Positions 1 to 59,960 of a stretch of 64,000 bases of DNA are shown here, piece after piece. Below the pieces are notes generated by a model that was given only the letters and a program-made list of their open reading frames with translations, did not search any database and was not told where the DNA came from. Both the position numbers and the translations under genes were made by a program. Within the stretch, counting starts at the first letter, position 1. Every line of letters starts with the position of its first letter. The DNA comes from Parcubacteria group bacterium LiPW_30 (GTDB taxonomy: Bacteria; Patescibacteriota; Minisyncoccia; Phycocordibacterales; VMEP01): the NCBI GenBank assembly GCA_007375595.1, contig VMEP01000001.1, positions 255,883 through 319,882 of the forward strand. The letters are read 5' to 3'.

Positions 1-450
1 GTTGGATTGAAAGATACAGCAAAGACGACTGTTACCGGAATCGAAATGTTCAATAAGACATTGAACGAAGGTATGGCCGGAGACAACGCAGGTATCCTTA
101 TTCGTGGAATAAAGAAAGAGGAAATTACCCGTGGTCAGGTTTTGGCTAAGCCAGGTTCTGTTACACCTCACACAGACTTCGAAGCAGAAGTTTATATCTT
201 GAAGAAGGAAGAAGGAGGTCGTCACACACCATTCTTCTCAGGTTACAAGCCTCAGTTTTATATTCGTACAACGGATGTGACTGGAGACGTGACCCTTCCA
301 GAAGGTGTTGAAATGGTTATGCCTGGAGACACAATGAAATTCAAAGTGAAGCTCGTTGCTCCAGTTGCCCTTGAGGAAAAACAGCGTTTTGCTATCCGTG
401 AGGGAGGTAAGACTGTTGGTGCAGGCGCAGTAACAAAGATTACGGCATAA
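1..450 (+). CDS. tuf: Elongation factor Tu, C-terminal part (gene starts upstream of window)
   Basis: ORF 7..450 translation matches EF-Tu domains 2-3 (GIEMF...[17 protein letters not shown]); open at window start. Confidence 0.9.
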
Positions 451-550
451 AGACTAGCTATCAGCTTCTAGCTTATAGCTTTTAGAAAATAAGATAGAAT
501 TCTAAATTACTAATGAAGCTAACAAGCTGAAACCTAAAAAGCTAAAAATA

Positions 551-952
551 ATGGCTCAAACAGAATTAAAAACTAAAAAAGTAGTAGAAAAAAAGGTTGC
601 TTCAAAAACACCTCGTGTTTCTAAAGCTTCAGCGAAAGAAGAGGTTATCACCAAACTTCGCATAAGAGTGCGAGCATATGAGAGTAAAATCCTCGATGCT
701 TCAGTGAAACAAATCATTGATACCGCGCTTCGTTATGATGCGAAACTAGTTGGTCCAATTCCACTTCCTACTGAAATAAAGAAGTACACGGTCAACCGCT
801 CGTCATTCGTCTATAAGAATGCGCGAGAGCAATTCGAGATGAGGATTCACAAGCGAGTAATTGATATTCTTAACCCTTCGGCAAAGATTATCGAAGCGCT
901 CACAAACATGAATCTTCCGTCGGGCGTTGATATTGATGTGAAGATGTTATAA
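551..952 (+). CDS. rpsJ: 30S ribosomal protein S10 with N-terminal Lys-rich extension
   Basis: KLRIRVRAYESKILD...GPIPLPT...HKRVIDIL motif set typical of S10. Confidence 0.9.
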   Translation: MAQTELKTKKVVEKKVASKTPRVSKASAKEEVITKLRIRVRAYESKILDASVKQIIDTALRYDAKLVGPIPLPTEIKKYTVNRSSFVYKNAREQFEMRIHKRVIDILNPSAKIIEALTNMNLPSGVDIDVKML

Positions 953-973
953 AAACTGGAAAGCCAGTTTAAA

Positions 974-1006
974 CAAAAAATCCCCAACATCAGGGGATTT
1001 TTTGTT
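974..1006 (+). terminator. Rho-independent terminator after rpsJ
   Basis: aaaaaatccccaacatcaggggattttttgttg: GC stem plus T-run. Confidence 0.6.
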
Positions 1007-1115
1007 GTGTGTGGCTTTGTTTTCCCATACTGTCTCCGCTTTTGCCTTTAAAAACATTGCGTAATTTTTTTGGATCTTCCTAAAATCAAGACTTTTTCTT
1101 CTGAATTTTAATACT

Positions 1116-1212
1116 CCAAAATACCTCCAAAAAACATTGCGCAGTGCGGCGGCACGAGCATAGTAAATTTTCAGCAGAAAATTATACGTGTTTTTAGGAG
1201 GTATTTTAAAAA
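1116..1212. mobile_element. MITE-like small repeat element, short copy; 19-bp imperfect terminal inverted repeats
   Basis: aaaatacctccaaaaaaca ... tgtttttaggaggtatttt (1 mismatch); internal gcgcagtgcg and taaattttcagcagaaaattatacg core shared with the copy at 54941 and others. Confidence 0.6.
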
Positions 1213-1270
1213 AGAGAAATAATGTGTTTTTAGAAGTAAAAGCTAAAAAAAGAAATAATTTACTTATTTG

Positions 1271-1298
1271 TTGCATTTTTTATTGGCTTCTGTATAAT
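1271..1298 (+). promoter_or_regulatory. sigma70-like promoter upstream of rplC (TTGCAT - 16 nt - TGTATAAT)
   Basis: hexamers read directly from sequence; position after terminator and MITE. Confidence 0.4.
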
Positions 1299-1364
1299 CC
1301 CCGTTACTCTTCATTGAGTAGATCTAAGTCCCCGCCAGTTCACGAATTGGCCGTTTCTGGGGAC

Positions 1365-1411
1365 CAATGGACAATCACCCCGCTTTGGTGAAGTCCATTG
1401 CGGTTTTTTTA
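1365..1411 (+). promoter_or_regulatory. Leader hairpin plus U-tract in rplC 5' UTR (candidate attenuator)
   Basis: caatggac...gtccattg 8-bp stem followed by cggttttttt, 40 nt upstream of the rplC ATG. Confidence 0.4.
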
Positions 1412-1450
1412 TTGCAAAAAATGAAATTCCTTTTGGGTATAAAAAAGAAT

Positions 1451-2050
1451 ATGGAACAGTTTTTCTCCGAAGACGGGAGAGCTTTTGCAGTGACTATCGT
1501 TTCTGCAACCCCTCTTACCGTTACGAGAACTAAAACAGCAAAGTCTGATGGTTATTCCGCTGTACAGGTTGGTCACGGAGAAAAACGCGAAAAACTTCTT
1601 TCAAAGGCTGAGTTAGGTCAGAGAAAAGGTTTTGCTAATTTTCGTAAATTGAAAGAATTCAGAATGCCAGAAGAAAAACTTGGTGAATACAAGGCTGGCG
1701 ATATGCTTGATGTTTCTCAGTTTGAAGTCGGCGATAAGATTGCCGTCTCCGGTGTTTCAAAAGGAAAAGGATTCCAAGGAGTTGTGAAGCGTCACGGATT
1801 TCACGGAGGACGCCGTTCTCACGGACAAAAGCACTCAGAGCGTGAACCAGGTGCTATTGGTGGTTCTGGTGGTCGCGCTGGAGGTCGTGTTGCAAAAGGT
1901 ATCCGTATGGCTGGTAGAATGGGTTCTGACCGTGTTACGGTTAAAAACCTTATGGTTGCCGCTATTGATAAAGAGAACAACACAATTTTAATTAAGGGAG
2001 CTCTTCCAGGGAAACCAGGAACACTTCTTGAAATTAGAAAAATTTCATAA
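1451..2050 (+). CDS. rplC: 50S ribosomal protein L3
   Basis: Translation from ATG 1451 (MEQFFSEDGRAFAVTIVSATPLTV...); upstream part of ORF 1367 overlaps the leader hairpin, so the shorter start is preferred. Confidence 0.85.
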   Translation: MEQFFSEDGRAFAVTIVSATPLTVTRTKTAKSDGYSAVQVGHGEKREKLLSKAELGQRKGFANFRKLKEFRMPEEKLGEYKAGDMLDVSQFEVGDKIAVSGVSKGKGFQGVVKRHGFHGGRRSHGQKHSEREPGAIGGSGGRAGGRVAKGIRMAGRMGSDRVTVKNLMVAAIDKENNTILIKGALPGKPGTLLEIRKIS

Positions 2051-2055
2051 AAATC

Positions 2056-2796
2056 ATGGAAAAGTCTAAAACACAAAAGAATAAGGTAGCTACGGCTAAA
2101 GAAAGCGTTAAGAAAGTACGCCCTCTAGTTGATATGAACGCAAAGGTCTACAACCAAGACGGGAAAGATGCTGGCACAGTCGAACTTCCAAAGACTGTTT
2201 TTGATGTTAAGTGGAATGATGATTTGGTTCATCAGGTTATGCTTTCAATGCAGTCTAACGCTCGCGCTGGTACAGCTCACACTAAAAACAGAGGAGATGT
2301 ACGCGGAGGTGGTAAGAAACCTTGGGCACAGAAAGGAACCGGTCGCGCACGACACGGCTCTTCAAGAAGCCCTATTTGGCGTGGTGGTGGTGTGACATTT
2401 GGTCCACGTGCTGAGAAAAACTATGATCGTAAGATAAACAAGAAGATGAAGGTTAAGGCGCTTTACACTGTTTTGTCGAGGAAATTTAGAGATGGTGAAA
2501 TTCTTTTTGTTGATACATTTAAACTAGCTTCTCCAAAAACAAAAGAAGCAAAAGTTATTTTTGAAAAAATAGTAGCAGGAGCAAAGCTCACAAAGACAAC
2601 AATGAAGAAGCGAAATACTGCATATCTTGCACTTGGAGCAAAAGATGTTCAGGTAGAAAAGAGTTTCCGCAATCTTCCAAATCTTGAGACAGGTAATGTT
2701 CGCGATTTGAACCTACTTTCTTTACTTAATCACCGTTACATTATAATTTCCGAACCAAAAGAAAGTATTTCGTTTTTGTCGGCAAAGATTAAATAA
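2056..2796 (+). CDS. rplD: 50S ribosomal protein L4
   Basis: Operon position and L4-like sequence (GTGRARHGS...). Confidence 0.85.
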   Translation: MEKSKTQKNKVATAKESVKKVRPLVDMNAKVYNQDGKDAGTVELPKTVFDVKWNDDLVHQVMLSMQSNARAGTAHTKNRGDVRGGGKKPWAQKGTGRARHGSSRSPIWRGGGVTFGPRAEKNYDRKINKKMKVKALYTVLSRKFRDGEILFVDTFKLASPKTKEAKVIFEKIVAGAKLTKTTMKKRNTAYLALGAKDVQVEKSFRNLPNLETGNVRDLNLLSLLNHRYIIISEPKESISFLSAKIK

Positions 2797-2801
2797 AATA
2801 T

Positions 2802-3158
2802 ATGGCACGAACAGCAAAAAAAGAAGAAGTTAAAGGAATCGCAGTTAAGGCGAGAGTCCAGCCTGTTGCTAAGCAGGCGAAAAATACTGGTGCATATACC
2901 CTTGTTCGCCCACACATCACAGAGAAAGCATCTTTCCTTACTTCTTCAAACGTATATACACTTGTGGTTCCAGTTGAAATGAATAAAAAAGAAATTTCAA
3001 AAGTTGTTGAGAAATTATACAAAGTTAAATCCGTTAAAATCACAACAGCTCCTATTAAGAAGAAGAATATTTTCAATCGCGGAAAGTGGGGCACAAAAGG
3101 AGGTGGGAAAAAAGCTTATGTGTTTTTGAAAAAGGGCGATTCAATTGATTTTGCATAA
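2802..3158 (+). CDS. rplW: 50S ribosomal protein L23
   Basis: Operon position, size, L23-like core. Confidence 0.8.
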   Translation: MARTAKKEEVKGIAVKARVQPVAKQAKNTGAYTLVRPHITEKASFLTSSNVYTLVVPVEMNKKEISKVVEKLYKVKSVKITTAPIKKKNIFNRGKWGTKGGGKKAYVFLKKGDSIDFA

Positions 3159-3168
3159 TTAAACTATT

Positions 3169-4011
3169 ATGAAAACCTACAAACCAACATCACCATCAAG
3201 AAGAAGCATGACAGGCGTAGTATATCGCAATGTTATCACCCATACAGAGCCATTAAAAGCTCTTACCAAGGGTCGCAAGCGAGATAGTGGACGCAACTCT
3301 GCTGGACGCATTACCACTCGCCATAAAGGAGGTGGGCACAAAAGACTCTATCGTGATATAGATTTTAAATATAATAAATTTGATATTCCAGCAAAGATTG
3401 CGAGCGTTGAATACGATCCAAACCGCACTGGTTTTATAGGTCTCGCTGTTTATAAAGACGGAGAGAAGCGTTATGTGCTTTTACCTAAATCTGTTGGAGT
3501 AGGTAACTCTTTTATCGTTAGTGAAACTGCATCGATAACCCCAGGAAATCGCATGCCACTCAAACAAGTTCCTGTTGGTACTTTTGTTTACAACGTTGAA
3601 CTAAAACCAAAGGGTGGTTCAAAAATTGCGCGCGGGGCTGGTGTTTATGTGGAAGTTGTTGCAAACAACGACGGTTACACGCACTTAAAAATGCCATCTA
3701 CAGAAGTTCGAAAAGTTTCTGATAAATGTTACGCATGTATCGGGCAGGTTTCAAACGAAGAACACGGACTTGTAAAAATAGGAAAAGCAGGACGTTCTCG
3801 ATGGATGGGTATTCGCCCAACAGTTCGTGGAACAGCTATGAACCCTGTTGATCACCCACACGGTGGAGGTGAAGGACGCCAAGGACGCGGTCTTCGACGT
3901 GCAAAGAGCAAGTGGGGCAAGCCAACAGGCAAGGGCCAAAAGACACGCGCACCTAAAAAATATTCAAACGTCTTTATTGTTTCAAGACGTAAAGTTGGAA
4001 AGAAACGATAA
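3169..4011 (+). CDS. rplB: 50S ribosomal protein L2
   Basis: Hallmark GRNSAGRITTRHKGGGHKRLYR and C-terminal Gly/Arg-rich tail. Confidence 0.95.
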   Translation: MKTYKPTSPSRRSMTGVVYRNVITHTEPLKALTKGRKRDSGRNSAGRITTRHKGGGHKRLYRDIDFKYNKFDIPAKIASVEYDPNRTGFIGLAVYKDGEKRYVLLPKSVGVGNSFIVSETASITPGNRMPLKQVPVGTFVYNVELKPKGGSKIARGAGVYVEVVANNDGYTHLKMPSTEVRKVSDKCYACIGQVSNEEHGLVKIGKAGRSRWMGIRPTVRGTAMNPVDHPHGGGEGRQGRGLRRAKSKWGKPTGKGQKTRAPKKYSNVFIVSRRKVGKKR

Positions 4012-4027
4012 TAATATAGCTATAAAC

Positions 4028-4060
4028 AAAAAATCTCGTCACATGGCGAGATTTTTTATT
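4028..4060 (+). terminator. Terminator directly after rplB
   Basis: aaaaaatctcgtcacatggcgagattttttatt. Confidence 0.5.
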
Positions 4061-4062
4061 AC

Positions 4063-4145
4063 GAGTTTACTTTTATCTTTACGGGTATAGTATTTCTCTT
4101 AGTTTACTTCTTTAATTTTTTGGCGGAGGAATCATGTCAAGAGAA
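4063..4145 (+). repeat. Direct repeat copy 1 (~80 bp leader: promoter-like TATAGTAT, RBS GGAGGAA, ATG-TCA-AGA)
   Basis: Near-identical to 5081..5162; each precedes a different small ORF starting MSR. Confidence 0.8.
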
Positions 4146-4550
4146 TCAGATGGCATCCTTTTTTCAGCAGTGTGCGGACATTGCGGCGAGTGTTGGGATG
4201 ATCATGAAAATCCGTATCAGTATGGTTGGACGGAAGACATGATGAAACAACGTCAGCCTGGCTTTAAAAAGTCGCTTTATGATTGCCCGGGGTTTCAGGT
4301 CAGAAAGATTGATTTGCCAGACATCATACTTGTTTCTGCAAGACGATTGTTTTTTGGAGAACCCCAATTACCTGTTTTTTGGAAATATCCCGGAATCAAG
4401 TCTGCCGCCGAGCACTGCTTGAAACAAAATCAAGCGAAGTGGGATTCGGCCGAAAGGAAACAGCGGTGGTCAATGTATAGTGACTGTGTGGTCCTTATTG
4501 GCGTTAACCCCAAGACAGGAACATCTGTCGTTGTTGATTGTGGTAGCTGA
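4134..4550 (+). CDS. Hypothetical protein, CxxCxxC N-terminus, GC-rich cassette gene
   Basis: ORF with RBS in duplicated leader; ~50% GC against ~38% background. Confidence 0.45.
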   Translation: MSRESDGILFSAVCGHCGECWDDHENPYQYGWTEDMMKQRQPGFKKSLYDCPGFQVRKIDLPDIILVSARRLFFGEPQLPVFWKYPGIKSAAEHCLKQNQAKWDSAERKQRWSMYSDCVVLIGVNPKTGTSVVVDCGS

Positions 4551-4610
4551 TAAGCCAATTATTGTGTACAAGGTCAGATTTCCGGACGAGTAGTTCGTCG
4601 GTGTAAGATA

Positions 4611-4650
4611 ATCGGCGCAGGGTTCTCACCCCGCGCCGATTTTTATTTTA
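4611..4650 (+). terminator. Rho-independent terminator
   Basis: atcggcgc...gcgccgat stem followed by ttttatttt. Confidence 0.6.
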
Positions 4651-4722
4651 CCAAAGGAAACTTACTTGGTCGTTTACAATTTTTTCAAGATTGCGTAGTA
4701 TCACACATAGAGGGAAAGTTCG

Positions 4723-5016
4723 ATGTTTTCTTACTGGGGGATTTCACCAGTGGACGACAAATTTAAACTGTTTCATGAGATTTCTCGGTTTTTACGTACC
4801 GCCCCACAGCCTGCAGTGATTGCGTGGAGAGAAGGGTGGAGCAAAATTACCCTACATCCCGACGGGTTTGAGTCGTGGGATTCGTGTGGGTGTTGTACAA
4901 CTGGATACTCTCCGGGGTGGTATTGCGAAAATCCCAAGGGGTCTTACCGTTGGATCTGTGGTCCCAAAGGAGAGAGCGTCAAAGGAAAAGCCCCAGAAGG
5001 ACTTTGTTGTTTGTGA
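4723..5016 (+). CDS. Hypothetical Cys-rich small protein
   Basis: RBS GAGGGAAAG before ATG; overlapping alternative frame 4820..5032 cannot be excluded. Confidence 0.35.
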   Translation: MFSYWGISPVDDKFKLFHEISRFLRTAPQPAVIAWREGWSKITLHPDGFESWDSCGCCTTGYSPGWYCENPKGSYRWICGPKGESVKGKAPEGLCCL

Positions 5017-5040
5017 AAACCTGGGTGACTAAAATAAAAA

Positions 5041-5074
5041 CCTGCAAAACCATCTCGGTCCTGCAGGTTTTTCT
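5041..5074 (+). terminator. Rho-independent terminator
   Basis: cctgca...tgcagg stem then tttttc. Confidence 0.55.
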
Positions 5075-5080
5075 GTTATG

Positions 5081-5162
5081 GGTTTACTTTTATTCCTGCT
5101 GGTATAGTATTTCTCTTAGTTTACTTCTTTAATTTTTGGCGGAGGAATCATGTCAAGACTGA
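5081..5162 (+). repeat. Direct repeat copy 2 of the cassette leader
   Basis: Matches 4063..4145 with few substitutions. Confidence 0.8.
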
Positions 5163-5398
5163 GAATTACAAGCGCCCGGGTGCTTGCGAAGATTGCTGGT
5201 CCAGAATGTGGAATTCATTGTCAGGTCAGAATCACTGCACCACTCAACAGTGTTTTTCAGGGAATTACTGCACCAAGTCTCTGGTTGGCAGAAGTGAGCA
5301 GACTTTTCCCCGAAATTCCAGAAAACCATCTTTCCATGGCGCCTGACGATAGTTTCGCTGTGCTCGCGGACCGTATCGCCGAGTACTTGAATCGCTGA
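5150..5398 (+). CDS. Hypothetical small protein (second MSR... cassette gene)
   Basis: Same leader/RBS as 4134 ORF, terminator downstream. Confidence 0.4.
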   Translation: MSRLRITSARVLAKIAGPECGIHCQVRITAPLNSVFQGITAPSLWLAEVSRLFPEIPENHLSMAPDDSFAVLADRIAEYLNR

Positions 5399-5425
5399 CG
5401 AATAACTTCGCCAGAAGAATGAAAG

Positions 5426-5456
5426 AAGCCCTGCGCATGCGCAGGGCTTTGTTTGT
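5426..5456 (+). terminator. Rho-independent terminator
   Basis: agccctgcgcatgcgcagggct followed by ttgtttg. Confidence 0.6.
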
Positions 5457-5741
5457 AGGTGGCCCCGCCGATCGGGGCAGACCTCCTGGTATCTCGTCTG
5501 ATCTAGCTCTCCTTGCTTGGCCGTGCAAGTATGATGCCTGTCGTTTTGACGAGCGGACAACGCCCACCGGAGTGGCGTATTCCAGGGTGAGGGACATGAT
5601 TACAACGACTTGCCTCCTTTACTCATATCCTAAGTCCGATTAGGGAGCAGCATACATCGAGGGGAATATGTGGGCGGGGCGCCCGACGACCCCAAGATTA
5701 GTCACCAAGTCCTTTTTCGATATTATCTGGTTTAGTCTGGT

Positions 5742-5769
5742 TTGACAATGGTTTTTCTTCTGATAATAT
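5742..5769 (+). promoter_or_regulatory. sigma70-like promoter re-starting the r-protein operon (TTGACA - 16 nt - TG-n-TAATAT)
   Basis: Consensus hexamers read directly, 60 nt upstream of rpsS. Confidence 0.5.
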
Positions 5770-5831
5770 GCACGACAAGCTCACTTGGGCTGTTTTTGTT
5801 TGTTTTTCATTAATTATACTAATTACTACAA

Positions 5832-6176
5832 ATGACCAGGTCACTAAAAAAAGGACCATACGTTGATCCACGCCTTCTAAAAAAGATAGAAGGTAAAAAA
5901 CCACTTGAAGCTGGGGTTATTAAGACTTGGTCACGACCATGCCAAATTTCTCCGGAGATGGTTGGTTTTACTTTTGGTGTACATAATGGAAAGAGCCATA
6001 TTGAAGTTTTGGTTACAGAAGATATGGTTGGACATCGCCTAGGTGAATTTTCTCCAACAAAGAAATTCGTAAGACACGGAGGTAAAATGCAGAAAGAGCT
6101 TGAACAGAAGAAGAAACAAGCGGAAATTTCTGCCGCACAGTCTGCTAAGGCAACCGCCGGTGATAAAAAGAAATAA
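5832..6176 (+). CDS. rpsS: 30S ribosomal protein S19 with Lys/Ala-rich C-terminal extension
   Basis: SLKKGPYVD...TWSR...VHNGK core. Confidence 0.9.
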
Positions 6177-6181
6177 AAAAT

Positions 6182-6604
6182 ATGAAAGCTGCACTTACAA
6201 ATTATCGCCAATCACCAAGAAAGGTTAGACTCGTAACTGATTTGGTAAAAGGAAAAAGCGTTGAGCAGGCAATTGCGTTGCTTACTTTTTCTGGGAAAAG
6301 AGCAGGAGACCCAATCCAAAAGCTAATCCGTTCAGCAATAGCAAATGCTAAAACTAACAACAAAGCTGAGGGTGAACTTTTCATAAAAGAATTTCGTGTT
6401 GACGAAGGGGTAACTCTTAAGCGTTCAATGCCTCGCGCTCGTGGTTCGGCTTTTCCAATTAAGAAACGCCAGAGCCATATTTTATTGGTTCTCGGGGAGC
6501 GAGGAGTTGTAGAGCCAAAAGAGGCAAAGAAGACCACCGCTTCAGTTAAAAAAACAGAGAAATCTGAAAAAAGTATTACTAAGAAGCTAAAAGCTAAAAG
6601 CTAA
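6182..6604 (+). CDS. rplV: 50S ribosomal protein L22
   Basis: Operon position; ARGSAFPIKKRQSHI-like L22 motif. Confidence 0.9.
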   Translation: MKAALTNYRQSPRKVRLVTDLVKGKSVEQAIALLTFSGKRAGDPIQKLIRSAIANAKTNNKAEGELFIKEFRVDEGVTLKRSMPRARGSAFPIKKRQSHILLVLGERGVVEPKEAKKTTASVKKTEKSEKSITKKLKAKS

Positions 6605-6618
6605 AAGCTGTTATTATC

Positions 6619-7299
6619 ATGACTCACGTTGTCCATCCATACGCACATAGAATAGGAATTTTAAGAGACTGGAAGTCTCGCTGGTTCGCAACGCTAGGTG
6701 GGAAATACAGTACCCTTTTACGTGGAGATGTTTTACTACGCGAGTATCTTGAAAAGAAACTCCGTGGTTTTTATATTGATTCTATTGATATTGAAAGAAG
6801 TCCAAAAACATTGCGTTTAAATATTAGAACATCACGTCCAGGAATGGTTATCGGCAGAAGCGGGGAAGGTTCAACTCGTTTACGAAACGATATAGTTGCT
6901 TTCATGAGAAAGAACAAGCTTGAAACTCCTGGTGAGCTAAAAATTGATATTGAAGAGGTTTCGTCTCCGGAAACAAGCGCAGCTATTGTTTCTTATATGG
7001 TTGCTGAAGCTCTTGAAAAACGCCTACCATTCCGCCGTGTTTTGAAACAGACAGTTGAAAAGGTTATGGCAAACCGCGATGTGAAAGGTGTTAAGGTTGC
7101 TTTGTCCGGTCGCTTAGGTGGAGCTGATATGGCAAGACGAGAGCACTTGAAGAGAGGCGGAATTCCACTTCAGACAATGCGCGCTGATATCGATTTTTAT
7201 CGAGAAAAAGCCCATCTTCCATATGGTGATATCGGTATTAAAGTTTGGATTTATAAAGGCGAAATTTTTGCTAAGGATAAGGATCAGGAGAAAAAATAA
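6619..7299 (+). CDS. rpsC: 30S ribosomal protein S3
   Basis: HPYAHRIGI...KH domain...GRLGGADMAR. Confidence 0.95.
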   Translation: MTHVVHPYAHRIGILRDWKSRWFATLGGKYSTLLRGDVLLREYLEKKLRGFYIDSIDIERSPKTLRLNIRTSRPGMVIGRSGEGSTRLRNDIVAFMRKNKLETPGELKIDIEEVSSPETSAAIVSYMVAEALEKRLPFRRVLKQTVEKVMANRDVKGVKVALSGRLGGADMARREHLKRGGIPLQTMRADIDFYREKAHLPYGDIGIKVWIYKGEIFAKDKDQEKK

Positions 7300-7311
7300 C
7301 CCAATAAATTT

Positions 7312-7740
7312 ATGTTATTCCCTAAAAAAGTTAAATACCGAAAGTGGCAGACAACTAGAAAGAATCCTGCTAAGTTAAAGGTGGAGACACGTGGTCTTTC
7401 TCTTTCGTATGGAGCTTTTGGGTTAAAGGCCCAGACCGAGGCTCGTGTAGATAGTAAGCAGATCGAAGCGGCAAGACGCGCAATGTCACGCGCCCTTGGT
7501 AAAACTGGCCGTATTTGGATCCGTATCTTCCCCGACCGCCCAGTTACCGCAAAGGCGGCTGAAGTTCCTATGGGTAAAGGAAAAGGAGACCCAAAGGGGT
7601 ATTGTTTCCAGGTTAAACCAGGAAGGATTTTGTTTGAGGTTGATGGTGTAGTAGAATCAGTCGCGCGCGAGGCCCTACGTAAGGGTGGTACAAAACTTCC
7701 ACTTAAGACAAAGTTTATGAGTCGCGCTGGAATGTTTTAA
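7312..7740 (+). CDS. rplP: 50S ribosomal protein L16
   Basis: MLFPKKVKYRK...RMGKGKG. Confidence 0.95.
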   Translation: MLFPKKVKYRKWQTTRKNPAKLKVETRGLSLSYGAFGLKAQTEARVDSKQIEAARRAMSRALGKTGRIWIRIFPDRPVTAKAAEVPMGKGKGDPKGYCFQVKPGRILFEVDGVVESVAREALRKGGTKLPLKTKFMSRAGMF

Positions 7741-7750
7741 TTATATTTTT

Positions 7751-7948
7751 ATGAAAGATTTAAAAACAAAAAAAGACGAAGACCTAAAGAAACTTCTTGT
7801 TGAGAAACAAGATGCTTTGAGAGCTTTTCGCCTCGGTCTTTCTGGAAGTAAGATTAAGAATGTAAAAGAAGGAGCAGAGATAAAAAAAGATATCGCGCGC
7901 ATCATGACCGAAGTTTCAAGTCGCCGAATTGCAGTTATCGCCAAATAA
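7751..7948 (+). CDS. rpmC: 50S ribosomal protein L29
   Basis: Size and position between L16 and S17; [10 protein letters not shown]-like. Confidence 0.8.
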
Positions 7949-7956
7949 ATATTTAT

Positions 7957-8211
7957 ATGACAAAAGCTACTGAACAAAAGAATAAGAAAGTACTAAAGGG
8001 GAAAGTTGTCTCTGATAAAATGGGTAAGACTGTGGTTGTTCTTATTGAGCGATATGTAAAGCACCCTAAGTATGGTAAGTTTATGAACCTAACAAAGCGT
8101 TACAAGGCACATGATGAGACAAACGCCTTCAAGGTTGGAGATGTGGTCGAAATAGAAGAAACTAGACCTATGTCTAAGGATAAGTGTTTCGTGGTCCGCA
8201 CAACAAAATAA
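7957..8211 (+). CDS. rpsQ: 30S ribosomal protein S17
   Basis: [14 protein letters not shown]...KRYKAHDE. Confidence 0.9.
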
Positions 8212-18940: not shown

Positions 18941-19033
18941 GGGCGAACAGTCTGGGTACAGACTGTTTTAGCCCTAAAACATTATTACCAAAATGTTCGG
19001 GCGAACAAATTTTAAATAAAATTTGTTTTAGCC
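18941..19033 (+). repeat. Two tandem copies of the TTCGGGCGA-hairpin-TTTTAGCC motif
   Basis: gggcgaaCAGTCTGggtaCAGACTGttttagcc then ctaaaa..ttcgggcgaaCAAATTTtaaataAAATTTGttttagcc. Confidence 0.6.
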
Positions 19034-23329: not shown

Positions 23330-23700
23330 GTTTTTTAATGTTCGCCCTTAAAATGCGCGTATAATTTTTTGCTAAAAATTTACTATACTCGCCTCGCCAG
23401 GCTCCGTAATGCATTTTAAGGGCGAACATAGAGATATTAAATACAAAAAACTTTGCTGAATTTTCGCTCTGCTCGATTCGTCAATCTGCGCAAGGTATTT
23501 TAGGGGTGTATGCAGGAAATAAAATACTTAGAAATGCACGTATAATTTTCTGCTGAAAATTTACTATACTCGGCTCGTCAGCCTCCGTCTCTCAATTGCT
23601 TCACTTATCGCAATTGAGCATCGCACTGCGCCCGCCTGCGCGTACACGCGGGCAGGCAATGTTTTTAAATACAAAAAATTGGATTTTTGAAGAAGGAGGA
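23330..23700 (-). mobile_element. Cluster of two partial MITE-family copies, minus orientation
   Basis: 23341-23430 bounded by ttcgcccttaaaatgc / gcattttaagggcgaa inverted repeats; 23536-23690 is the reverse complement of modules seen at 54961-55105 (ctcaattgcgataagtgaagcaattgagagacggaggctgacgagccgag). Confidence 0.55.
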
Positions 23701-31228: not shown

Positions 31229-31364
31229 CAAGGGAGATTGACTATAAATAACTTTTTGCCGTCGCAAAAAGTTTTGAGGATTAGTTCGATGTGGGAATTG
31301 GTCACAAATCTTTTGTTGCTACAAAAGTTCGCGACCCCGCCTCGCGCCGTCGCGCTCCGGCTTT

Positions 31365-31447
31365 CAATTCCCCACACAAGACATGCAGATGTCTTGCTCC
31401 ATCTCCACAAACAAAAATGGCTCACCGAAAGGTGAGCTCATTTTTGA
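31365..31447. repeat. Inverted partial copy of the tmRNA 3' end next to a bidirectional terminator hairpin
   Basis: ttcaattcccc...tccatctccacaa is the reverse complement of tmRNA 3' segments tgtggagatgg / ggggaattgaa; terminator ggctcaccgaaaggtgagcc. Confidence 0.5.
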
Positions 31448-35882: not shown

Positions 35883-35960
35883 GTCCGCCCTTAGCTCAGT
35901 TGGTTAGAGCACAGAGCTTATACCTCTGCGGTCCCTGGTTCGAATCCAGGAGGGCGGACA
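35883..35960 (+). tRNA. tRNA with anticodon TAT (UAU; reads AUA, Ile); acceptor helix can extend to 9 bp
   Basis: Cloverleaf folded by hand: D-arm TAGCTCAGTTGGTTAGAGC, anticodon stem CAGAG/CTCTG, loop CTTATAC, T-loop TTCGAAT, acceptor CCGCCCT/AGGGCGG. Confidence 0.6.
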
Positions 35961-54841: not shown

Positions 54842-54940
54842 TTTCCCTCAAGTGGATAAAAGGCGGAGTGGTAGCAATACCCCCGCCTTTTTGTTTTGTT
54901 TTTAAAAATATTACGGAATTGTATTTTTTTAATTTAAGAC

Positions 54941-55127
54941 CCAAAATACCCCCAAAAAACATTGCGCAGTGCGACTGGCTCAATTGCGATAAGTGAAGCA
55001 ATTGAGAGACGGAGGCTGACGAGCCGAGTCGGGGTAGCGCAAATTTCTAGCAAGAAATTATGCGTGACCGAGCATAGTAAATTTTTAGCAAAAAATTATA
55101 CGCGTTTTTTGGGGGTATTTTAAAAAA
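54941..55127. mobile_element. MITE-like element, long copy; perfect 18-bp terminal inverted repeats
   Basis: ccaaaatacccccaaaaaac ... gttttttgggggtattttaa; internal modules shared with 1116, 23536-23690 (reverse complement), 59842-59937, 57740-57800. Confidence 0.65.
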
Positions 55128-55169
55128 AGAGATTTACTACCAACTTTTGATTTCTTGCGTTAGTATAAA

Positions 55170-57719: not shown

Positions 57720-57858
57720 GGGCTTATGGAGTAAGACCGGGCCGGAGCGTGGCGACGCGAGGCGGGGTCGCAGAATTTTTCAGCAGAAAAATATCTGTGA
57801 CGAAGTGGTACTCCTTGTGGTTTAACCACAAAGTTTGTTAAGGTAGTTGTTGAAAGAA
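57720..57858. mobile_element. MITE-family fragment inserted at the tRNA-Met 5' end, flanked by a direct repeat of the tRNA start
   Basis: Direct repeat aattata(t)agcgggatg at 57703 and 57856; internal ccggagcgtggcgacgcgaggcggggtcgcagaatttttcagcagaaaaatat matches family modules. Confidence 0.45.
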
Positions 57859-59795: not shown

Positions 59796-59960
59796 CTGGG
59801 TTGTAACCAGTAAATAATTTTACTGGTGTACGGGATTGAAAGCCGGAGGCAGACGTGCCGAGGCGGGGTAGCGCAACCGGAGGCAGACGTGCCGAGGCGG
59901 GGTAGCGCAAAAATTTAGCAAAATTTTATGCGTGACCAATCCCGGACAACGGCTCTGGGT
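59779..59960. mobile_element. 137-bp MITE-family insert bounded by a 23-bp direct repeat of the tRNA-Thr 3' end
   Basis: aatcccggacaacggctctgggt at 59779-59801 and 59938-59960; insert has tandem 34-bp repeat ccggaggcagacgtgccgaggcggggtagcgcaa x2 plus aaatttagcaaaattttatgcgtgacc. Confidence 0.6.

Follow-up and report, generated by a model that had tools for sequence, protein, structure and literature searches.

Ribosomal-protein leaders are the main known bacterial route by which the synthesis of ribosomal proteins is balanced with that of ribosomal RNA (rRNA); these autoregulatory RNAs bind a protein encoded by their own operon, often by mimicking its rRNA site. Patescibacteria have very reduced regulatory repertoires. 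The leader of the Escherichia coli S10 operon combines L4-dependent, NusA-dependent termination with translational repression, and its RNA has been reported to be confined to Gammaproteobacteria, as are most of the well-studied E. coli ribosomal-protein leaders (PMC3616713). In the literature on ribosomal leaders, no leader of the rplC-rplD block was found described for Patescibacteria; the surveys give one archaeal L4 candidate before rplC (PMC7247131). Here we describe an RNA element between rpsJ and rplC in a 64,000-nucleotide (nt) stretch of Parcubacteria group bacterium LiPW_30 (contig VMEP01000001.1, positions 255,883 to 319,882; hereafter the window). The element is a new, covariation-supported candidate for a ribosomal-protein leader of Patescibacteria, with a predicted terminator/antiterminator design, and modeled folds suggest that it probably operates as a two-state attenuator at the head of a detached rplC operon. 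Positions refer to the window, and features lie on its plus strand unless marked (−); loci used for comparison are denoted by L and three digits.

Leader family and covariation upstream of rplC

DNA upstream of rplC was compared in 160 loci fetched by L3 protein, and the motif G(A/G)CCAATGG was found 55–250 nt before rplC in 17 of them. With close relatives included, 18 leader sequences from Paceibacteria-type Patescibacteria were obtained, about 16 of which are independent. Because searches of the fetched loci with the leader by blastn and nhmmer gave noise only, the family was found by eye and by regular expression. The order of parts is shared by all 18 sequences: a −10 box TATAMT, an optional hairpin (P0), CUAN, GU-(P2)-AC, where P2 is a second hairpin, and CAAUGG. 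The core is found ahead of rplC in the window, L161/L162/L163, L164, L003/L085, L010, L023, L041, L114/L030, L105, L115 and L036, of which the window and the first-named locus of each set form type A, and also in L022, L024, L027, L034, L110, L116 and L123, which form type B. In type A, the core is followed by the helix CAAUGGNN/NNCCAUUG (P3) and then by a small GC hairpin and a U-tract. Type B carries an invariant AAAGACCUAYGUAC-P2-GACCAAUGGGCACAAA, followed by a long GC hairpin with a conserved apical GAGCUUGUGCUC and a U-rich tail, and its distal UAUGGGUC can pair with GACCUAUG.

We built a covariance model of the core (R1) and ran it against the window together with 173 loci (1.09 Mb, both strands). 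It returned 24 matches at E ≤ 0.14, duplicate contigs included, every one of them in the orientation of rplC and immediately ahead of it; the strongest score elsewhere in the 1.09 Mb had E = 0.7, and the 64-kb window itself gave one match (1318–1373, E = 9e-4). Rfam 15 was scanned against positions 1–8000 at E ≤ 1, the whole 64 kb at gathering thresholds and 13 related loci; the leader had no match in the window (1299–1420), either at E ≤ 1 or at gathering thresholds, nor at E ≤ 1 in the 13 related loci, and the leaders of L003, L010, L024, L027 and L114 gave no Rfam 15 match. The nearest genomes belong to Paceibacteria/Parcubacteria-type Patescibacteria, whose species representatives have an L3 that is at most 62% identical, and two metagenome relatives are nearer (L161, L3 99% identical; L164, 93%). 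The leader is kept across lineages whose L3 is 50–62% identical to that of the window. It is thus a conserved, structured RNA in the 5′ untranslated region (UTR) of a ribosomal-protein operon, with covariation across 18 loci.

The leader is about 105 nt long (~1304–1410), and the region 1299–1425 folds with a predicted ΔG of −42.5 kcal/mol (z = −4.48; 0 of 200 shuffled sequences fold as well). Its optional 5′ element, P0 (1304–1321, UUACUC/GAGUAG in the fold), is replaced by a hairpin of other sequence in L003, L010 and L115 and is absent in L023 and L041. It is followed by the junction J1 (U-CUA-A, 1323–1327), in which CUA or CCA is kept in 18 of 18 sequences and of which UCUA (1323–1326) is the 5′ strand of a 4-bp helix, P1′. 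The 3′ strand of P1′, UGGA (1368–1371), overlaps the invariant ACCAAUGG (1363–1370; 18 of 18). CUA can pair there with UGG, the last three letters of CAAUGG. The central position of this pairing is U-G, replaced by C-G in two sequences. At the flanking position, seven sequences have CG, three each have GC, GU and UA, and two are unpaired (paired in 16 of 18). Hairpin P2 (1328–1364) consists of GUCCCC...GGGGAC and an inner stem GCCAGUU/AAUUGGC. Five of its seven pairs are compensatory, and 89.9% of cells are paired, compared with 67.7% after shuffling (none of the 500 shuffles did as well); this signal collapses when the 3′ partners are slid, and the L164 counterpart, GUUCCC/GGGAAC, is itself a compensatory variant. 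P1′, a 1×3 internal loop (N/CAA) and P2 together make a compact irregular hairpin.

CAAUGG also has an alternative partner downstream, CCAUUG, with which it forms P3. In the minimum-free-energy fold of the window, P3 and P3a (1365–1400) comprise CAAUGGAC (1365–1372) paired with GUCCAUUG (1393–1400) around UCACC (1375–1379)/GGUGA (1387–1391). P3 is the 8-bp stem caatggac/gtccattg that the initial annotation had reported together with a U-tract in the rplC leader; both are present, the U-tract being U7 at 1404–1410, within the region whose fold has z = −4.48. In 9 of 10 type-A leaders, G7 and G8 of the P3 strand pair with CC or CU, and the two pairs beyond GG covary (AU, CG, UA and UG at the first; CG and AU at the second). 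The covariation analysis in related genomes that the initial annotation had called for was thus run, and pairs of P2, P1′ and P3 covary. The proposed terminator (1380–1410) pairs CCGC (1380–1383) with GCGG (1400–1403), has an inner UGG/CCA, lies flush with U7 and excludes P3 and P3a; its counterpart in L023 is GCCCGC-CAUU-GCGGGC.

A sigma-70-type promoter precedes the leader at 1271–1298 (−35 TTGCAT, 1271–1276; 16-nt spacer; −10 TATAAT, 1293–1298) and is identical in L161 and L164, and transcription would start at about 1304–1306. The arrangement TTGCA, ~17 nt, TATA(A/C/G)T recurs at a fixed distance from the leader in 18 of 18 loci, and promoter and leader are the best-conserved stretch of the spacer across the window, L161 and L164. 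A generic promoter scanner missed the site because its −35 hexamer matches at 3 of 6 positions. In 7 of 10 type-A leaders, 7–11 nt separate the end of the U-tract from the start codon (10 nt in the window). A further promoter would not fit in between, so transcription of rplC has to pass through the leader.

On the upstream side, rpsJ is followed by a terminator at 960–1018 (no strand assigned), seen in the fold, as inverted repeat I20, as a member of terminator family D1 and as an IS128 terminator match. Its core hairpin (971–1006) is AAACAAAAAAUCCCC-AACAUCA-GGGGAUUUUUUGUU, which AAAGCCA/UGGCUUU extends to 960–1018 (predicted ΔG −30.1 kcal/mol for the extended form). It appears bidirectional because an A-tract lies on one side and a U-tract on the other. 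It resembles the other family D1 terminators in the window, and its Rfam match is solely to the terminator part of IS128 RNA.

In all leader-bearing loci rplC stands apart from rpsJ, with a gap of 468–3560 nt or with other genes upstream, and the ACCAATGG core was found in none of the loci whose rpsJ-rplC gap is below 130 nt. In L161, rpsJ and the same promoter and leader are separated by four unrelated genes, of which two lie on the opposite strand. Because rplC is detached in every leader-bearing locus, including L161, the leader marks the start of an independent rplC transcription unit. No conserved gene was found between rpsJ and rplC in the leader-bearing loci, and the genes upstream of the leader are unrelated from locus to locus. 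The initial annotation, which had placed an intrinsic terminator at 974–1006, a promoter at 1271–1298 and a candidate attenuator between rpsJ and rplC and had implied separate transcription of rplC, is therefore borne out in these respects: the terminator is strong, and a promoter at the same distance and a structured leader are kept in 18 loci. The label of candidate attenuator describes the element well, since rplC is its own unit and every type-A member has terminator-like hairpins and U-tracts.

Alternative pairings, proposed mechanism and rival readings

Type-A leaders (n = 10) were folded twice, with UGG allowed to pair only upstream (state 1) or only downstream (state 2) and with the U-tract kept single-stranded. 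P3 and the terminators were analyzed in each sequence by constrained folding, because MAFFT alignments of the 3′ domain were not structural. State 1 combines P1′ and P2 with a GC-rich hairpin, which directly abuts the U-tract in 8 of 10 leaders; the hairpin lies 2 nt upstream of the U-tract in L115 and 7 nt upstream in L023, and in L114 UUUGU directly follows the state-1 stem, before the main U run. State 2 contains P3, often with the inner P3a and an outer helix that make a three-way junction, and 7 of 10 leaders no longer form the terminator hairpin. The predicted energy gap between the states is 0.2–3.4 kcal/mol in 10 of 10 leaders (−36.0 for state 1 versus −39.4 kcal/mol for state 2 in the window). 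The terminator sequences are mutually unrelated, yet all overlap P3, in its 3′ strand or in its interior. What is predicted is thus a GC-rich hairpin with a U-tract that is mutually exclusive with an alternative helix of like stability, as expected of an attenuator.

In the mechanism that we propose, rpsJ transcripts would end at the strong terminator, and rplC-rplD-rplW-rplB would be transcribed from their own promoter (1271–1298) through the ~105-nt leader. In state 1, UCUA (1323–1326) would pair with UGGA (1368–1371) to give a closed hairpin of the 4-bp helix, the 1×3 internal loop and P2; the downstream strand, left free, would form the GC hairpin up to the U-tract (1380–1410), and transcription would stop 10 nt before the rplC AUG. 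In state 2, CAAUGGAC would pair with GUCCAUUG (P3 and P3a), the terminator hairpin would be blocked and RNA polymerase would read into rplC. A ribosomal protein encoded by the operon, when in excess over rRNA, would bind the P1′/internal-loop/P2 hairpin and lock state 1, and its own synthesis would fall. We infer the transcription start, the actual termination, the bound state and the identity of the ligand. L4 is a candidate ligand by analogy with precedent. L3, the product of the first gene, is another; uL3 organizes domain VI of 23S rRNA and contacts helix H95 in yeast (PMC9935924, PMC9508819).

Several points weigh against this reading. P1′ has 4 bp and one truly covarying pair, the CG, UA, GC and GU classes of which partly follow lineages. 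The window has a weak state-1 terminator, of 4 + 3 pairs interrupted by an internal loop, and its state 2 is favored by 3.4 kcal/mol. Type B shares the core and has another downstream domain, in which a switch is less clear. R1 had no match in E. coli 23S rRNA, so that the model gives no sign of rRNA mimicry there. All sequences used come from metagenome assemblies, and all energies are predicted. Finally, P3, which lies 3 nt from U7, could itself be the terminator in the lineage of the window, which would reverse the logic relative to the other members. P3 is more likely an antiterminator because a different GC-rich hairpin at or next to the U-tract competes with it in 7 of 10 leaders, and in the window P3 stops 3 nt before the U-tract; the 8-bp stem that the initial annotation took for the terminator is accordingly reassigned as a proposed antiterminator.

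The same observations bear on a simple attenuator, in which the hairpin 1365–1400 and U7 are the terminator, constitutive and leaky or stabilized by a protein, with no antiterminator and an incidental J1:UGG pairing. We consider it unlikely. It accords with P3 being the minimum-free-energy structure in the window and in L164, with an extra pair C1364-G1402 that would bring the P3 hairpin to 1–3 nt from U7 and with the weakness of the alternative CCGC/GCGG hairpin, but in L010, L003, L041, L114 and L115 the hairpin at or next to the U-tract is distinct from P3, and the two cannot coexist. Moreover, the pair flanking J1:UGG covaries, and the invariance of CUA would have no reason.

The short distance from U-tract to AUG (7–11 nt in 7 of 10 type-A leaders) and the absence of a Shine-Dalgarno sequence would also suit a mainly translational operator, a hairpin that binds a ribosomal protein and blocks rplC initiation, with the U-tract as an A/U-rich landing site for the ribosome in place of a terminator. 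The short type C spacers described below, which lack a terminator and have a helix up to the AUG, point the same way, and E. coli L4 controls both transcription and translation (PMC3616713). This reading is nevertheless improbable: 10 of 10 type-A leaders retain GC-rich hairpins directly before U runs despite differing sequence, and the leader lies 243 nt (L105) and ~100 nt (L161) upstream of the AUG.

Returning to the protein-binding two-state attenuator, a resemblance to 23S rRNA was sought at the level of strings as well. The type-B core YGUAC..GGACC matches sarcin-ricin-loop strings at E. coli 23S 2655–2667, and CCAAUGG occurs at 23S 2703 (H97); these are short strings, and type A has a C-G in place of the A-G pair of the sarcin-ricin-like core. 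Because type A swaps A-G for C-G and R1 finds nothing in E. coli 23S rRNA, 23S mimicry is a lead and not a result. Mimicry of the sarcin-ricin loop (2654–2667) and of the H97 CCAAUGG (2703) is attractive in view of the place of uL3 in domain VI and its contact with H95, but it has no covariance-model support and is not kept in type A; similarities to 23S 424–452 (CUAAAUAC..GACCGAUAG) and 23S 197–211 (CAUCUAAGUACCCCG) were rejected as chance-like. A quite improbable conjecture is that the leader, instead of serving ribosomal-protein feedback, senses a growth-state signal (a nucleotide, an alarmone or similar) as a very small riboswitch-like element and gates the main large-subunit protein operon; in a variant, it would be the first bacterial leader to respond to L3, with a sarcin-ricin-loop-like core as the L3 site.

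That the leader is a riboswitch for a small molecule or nucleotide rather than a protein-binding leader is very unlikely. The architecture is that of a standard expression platform, in which a sensor hairpin shares its 3′ strand with an antiterminator and a terminator follows, but the conserved core is tiny (~13 invariant nt, a 4-bp helix and a 1×3 internal loop), and occurrence only before ribosomal-protein genes is a hallmark of ribosomal-protein leaders.

With its own promoter, a U-tract terminator and a stable structure (z = −4.48), the ~105-nt RNA might be read as an independent small RNA gene that merely adjoins rplC, but it always lies right before rplC in the same orientation while the upstream contexts differ, and most members have no room for a separate rplC promoter; we give this reading very little credence. 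That the leader is a non-functional by-product, debris of insertions with a chance hairpin in a spacer that lies at an insertion hot spot (gaps of 5–3560 nt) and holds a repeat element, can be dismissed, being contradicted by its retention across lineages with L3 identities of 50–62% and by the covariation of its helices. The two-state ribosomal-protein attenuator is the reading retained.

Neighboring genes, spacer repeat and variable junctions

The window begins with the end of tuf, which is followed after ~100 nt by rpsJ, the 468-nt spacer, rplC, rplD, rplW and rplB. The rpsJ gene (S10; 551–952, stop codon 950–952, 133 amino acids), identified from the open reading frame (ORF) list and by tblastn matches of S10 in related loci, closes the upstream unit. 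The genes rplC (L3; 1421–2050, 209 amino acids; P0001 is 99% identical over 209 amino acids), rplD (2056–2796), rplW (2802–3158) and rplB (3169–4011) were taken from the ORF list, and the same gene order is seen in L161 and L164. The start codon of rplC is ATG 1421 (MKFLLGIKKNMEQFF...), since the 209-amino-acid length and the N-terminus match the homologues P0001 and P0002; the start at ~1451 implied by the initial annotation was corrected on this basis, and the 5′ UTR is therefore shorter than had been assumed. An in-frame ATG at 1367, which would open a 227-amino-acid ORF, was rejected as the rplC start and is non-coding, because homologues have 209 amino acids and its counterpart in L164, a 93%-identical relative, is out of frame and interrupted by stop codons. 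The rplC start has no Shine-Dalgarno sequence.

A multi-copy structured repeat lies in the spacer at 1107–1217 (outer stem AAAATACCTCCAAAAAAC/GTTTTTAGGAGGTATTTT; inner hairpin AATTTTC-AGCA-GAAAATT), and a 12-nt partial repeat, AAAAACATTGCG, at 1050–1061 recurs at 1130–1141 and has a homologous stretch in L164. The full copy matches 54931–55135, 23331–23417 (−), 23520–23631 (−), 59835–59937 (within a family copy at 59823–59937), 57734–57804 and 31298–31380 (−), and the 23-mer at 1119–1141 recurs at 54944 (0.01 chance matches expected). The repeat contains a 19-bp inverted repeat whose arms differ compensatorily between copies (CCTCC/GGAGG, CCCCC/GGGGG, CCTTT/AAAGG), its outer and inner stems both change in this way, and the loop (C/U)AGCA(G/A) is kept. 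L161 and L164 share its position, and no target-site duplication was seen at 1107–1217. The initial annotation had described a partial and a full copy of a miniature inverted-repeat transposable element (1050–1212); the repeat and its 12-nt partial copy stand, and the element is better called a structured intergenic repeat, which a shared position in L161 and L164 and compensatory arm changes fit better than recent transposition.

The repeat family is modular, with a unit of approximately CGAG..TAG(T/C)RAA-stem-(C/T)AGCA(G/A)-stem-TATRCGYG in which the stems covary, and some copies are tandem. Several copies adjoin tRNA or tmRNA genes, and a TATAAT-like box is present on the complementary strand. 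The family had no match in Rfam at gathering thresholds. In L161, a 90-nt insertion (~2902–2995) lies between the leader U-tract and the rplC ATG and contains GTTCGGGTGACC, which resembles another repeat family of the window, D4 (TTCGGGCGACC at 18989, 25022 and 31868).

Patescibacteria have an insertion hot spot at the rpsJ-rplC junction (L001–L044, L081–L128 and L161; gaps of 5–3560 nt); the gap of L161 is occupied by a DUF5667 gene together with three small ORFs, two of these on the opposite strand. The next-closest relatives (L3 64–67% identical) have short rpsJ-rplC spacers of 75–88 nt (L165 1426–1500, L169 1422–1500, L170/L172 and L088 2913–3000). These type C spacers share the motif AGUUAAUAUAGGUACAAUGYC-(covarying hairpin)-GRUAACUUAACUAU-AUG and have neither promoter nor terminator, and their helix extends to the start codon; the likeness of UAGGUAC-AAUG to CUAYGUAC..ACCAAUGG suggests that type C may be a reduced, translational relative of the leader. 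Outside Patescibacteria, a similar motif precedes rplC in a member of the Chitinophagales (Bacteroidota; L068 3953–3987, CUAUGUCCC-uauacc-GGGACCGCUGGGUAUAA, R1 E = 0.7), and the rpsJ-rplC spacers of other Chitinophagales (L047, L070, L053, L072 and L076) contain ACAUCCAUCU-hairpin-GCGCUGGUAUAA. The Chitinophagales motif upstream of rplC had no Rfam match; it may be a related or a convergent rplC leader.

rplB and rpsS are normally adjacent, and in the window a 1.8-kb insert separates them (4012–5831). It contains a ~90-bp segment twice (4052–4142 and 5069–5158, 87–94% identical); each copy carries a promoter-like TTTAC..GGTATAGT and a GGAGG Shine-Dalgarno sequence and precedes an ORF that begins ATGTCAAGA (4134–4550, 138 amino acids; 5150–5398, 82 amino acids). 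A Pfam scan of the ORFs in this insert gave no match. Between rplB and rpsS, L161 has 783 bp and L164 has 183 bp; therefore, this junction is variable too. Elsewhere in the window, a tRNA-Ile with anticodon UAU (gene TAT) is predicted at 35885–35959. tRNA-Ile(UAU) is uncommon in bacteria, in which AUA is usually read by a lysidine-modified CAU tRNA.

Comparison with known leaders and significance

The candidate is a compact RNA of ~50–105 nt with covariation support and a clear two-state design. Many Paceibacteria interrupt the classical S10 operon after rpsJ, and a dedicated promoter and leader start it anew, a split that matters for operon annotation and for the use of ribosomal-protein blocks as syntenic markers in metagenome bins.

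With the L4-Archaeoglobi candidate (PMC7247131), the leader shares a position directly upstream of rplC-rplD-rplW-rplB and a derivation from comparative genomics alone; the archaeal RNA has another motif, and the leader of the window had no Rfam 15 match at E ≤ 1. The leader of the infC-rpmI-rplT operon in Bacillus subtilis, which is subject to L20-dependent attenuation (PMC1865079), offers a parallel in logic, in that the protein-bound leader favors a terminator over an antiterminator, as is proposed for the window; operon, protein and RNA fold differ, and the L20 system was shown experimentally whereas that of the window is predicted. Riboswitch expression platforms likewise share the 3′ strand of a sensor helix with an antiterminator and couple closure of the sensor to the terminator, whereas the sensor of the window is a small irregular hairpin that occurs only before ribosomal-protein genes, with no metabolite implicated.

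Control by the E. coli S10 leader extends to the same genes (rplC, rplD, rplW, rplB and onward). In both systems a structured 5′ leader places a hairpin upstream of a terminator hairpin and U-tract, and in both, feedback is presumed to come from a primary rRNA-binding protein encoded by the operon. The E. coli leader precedes rpsJ, whereas that of the window follows rpsJ, behind a terminator and with its own promoter; the E. coli hairpins HA–HE and HG have no counterpart in the window, and E. coli relies on protein-stabilized pausing at one terminator, with no evident terminator/antiterminator alternative. R1, run with filters off against the leader of E. coli K-12 (L175 5272–5450), gave no match at E ≤ 10. 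A CUAC-GUAA..UUAC string seen by eye in HD is short and has no match at the level of the model, and no homology in sequence or structure was detected. The E. coli S10 leader is not modeled in Rfam 15, and a scan of L175 5272–5450 returned no family; the negative Rfam scan of the window therefore cannot exclude kinship to that RNA. The likeness to L4-mediated attenuation drawn in the initial annotation thus holds for a leader attenuator of the same genes; the link to L4 is one of analogy, for a leader that lies before rplC and not rpsJ and whose model does not match the E. coli RNA. The leader of the window would work like the E. coli S10 leader and is not a member of that family.

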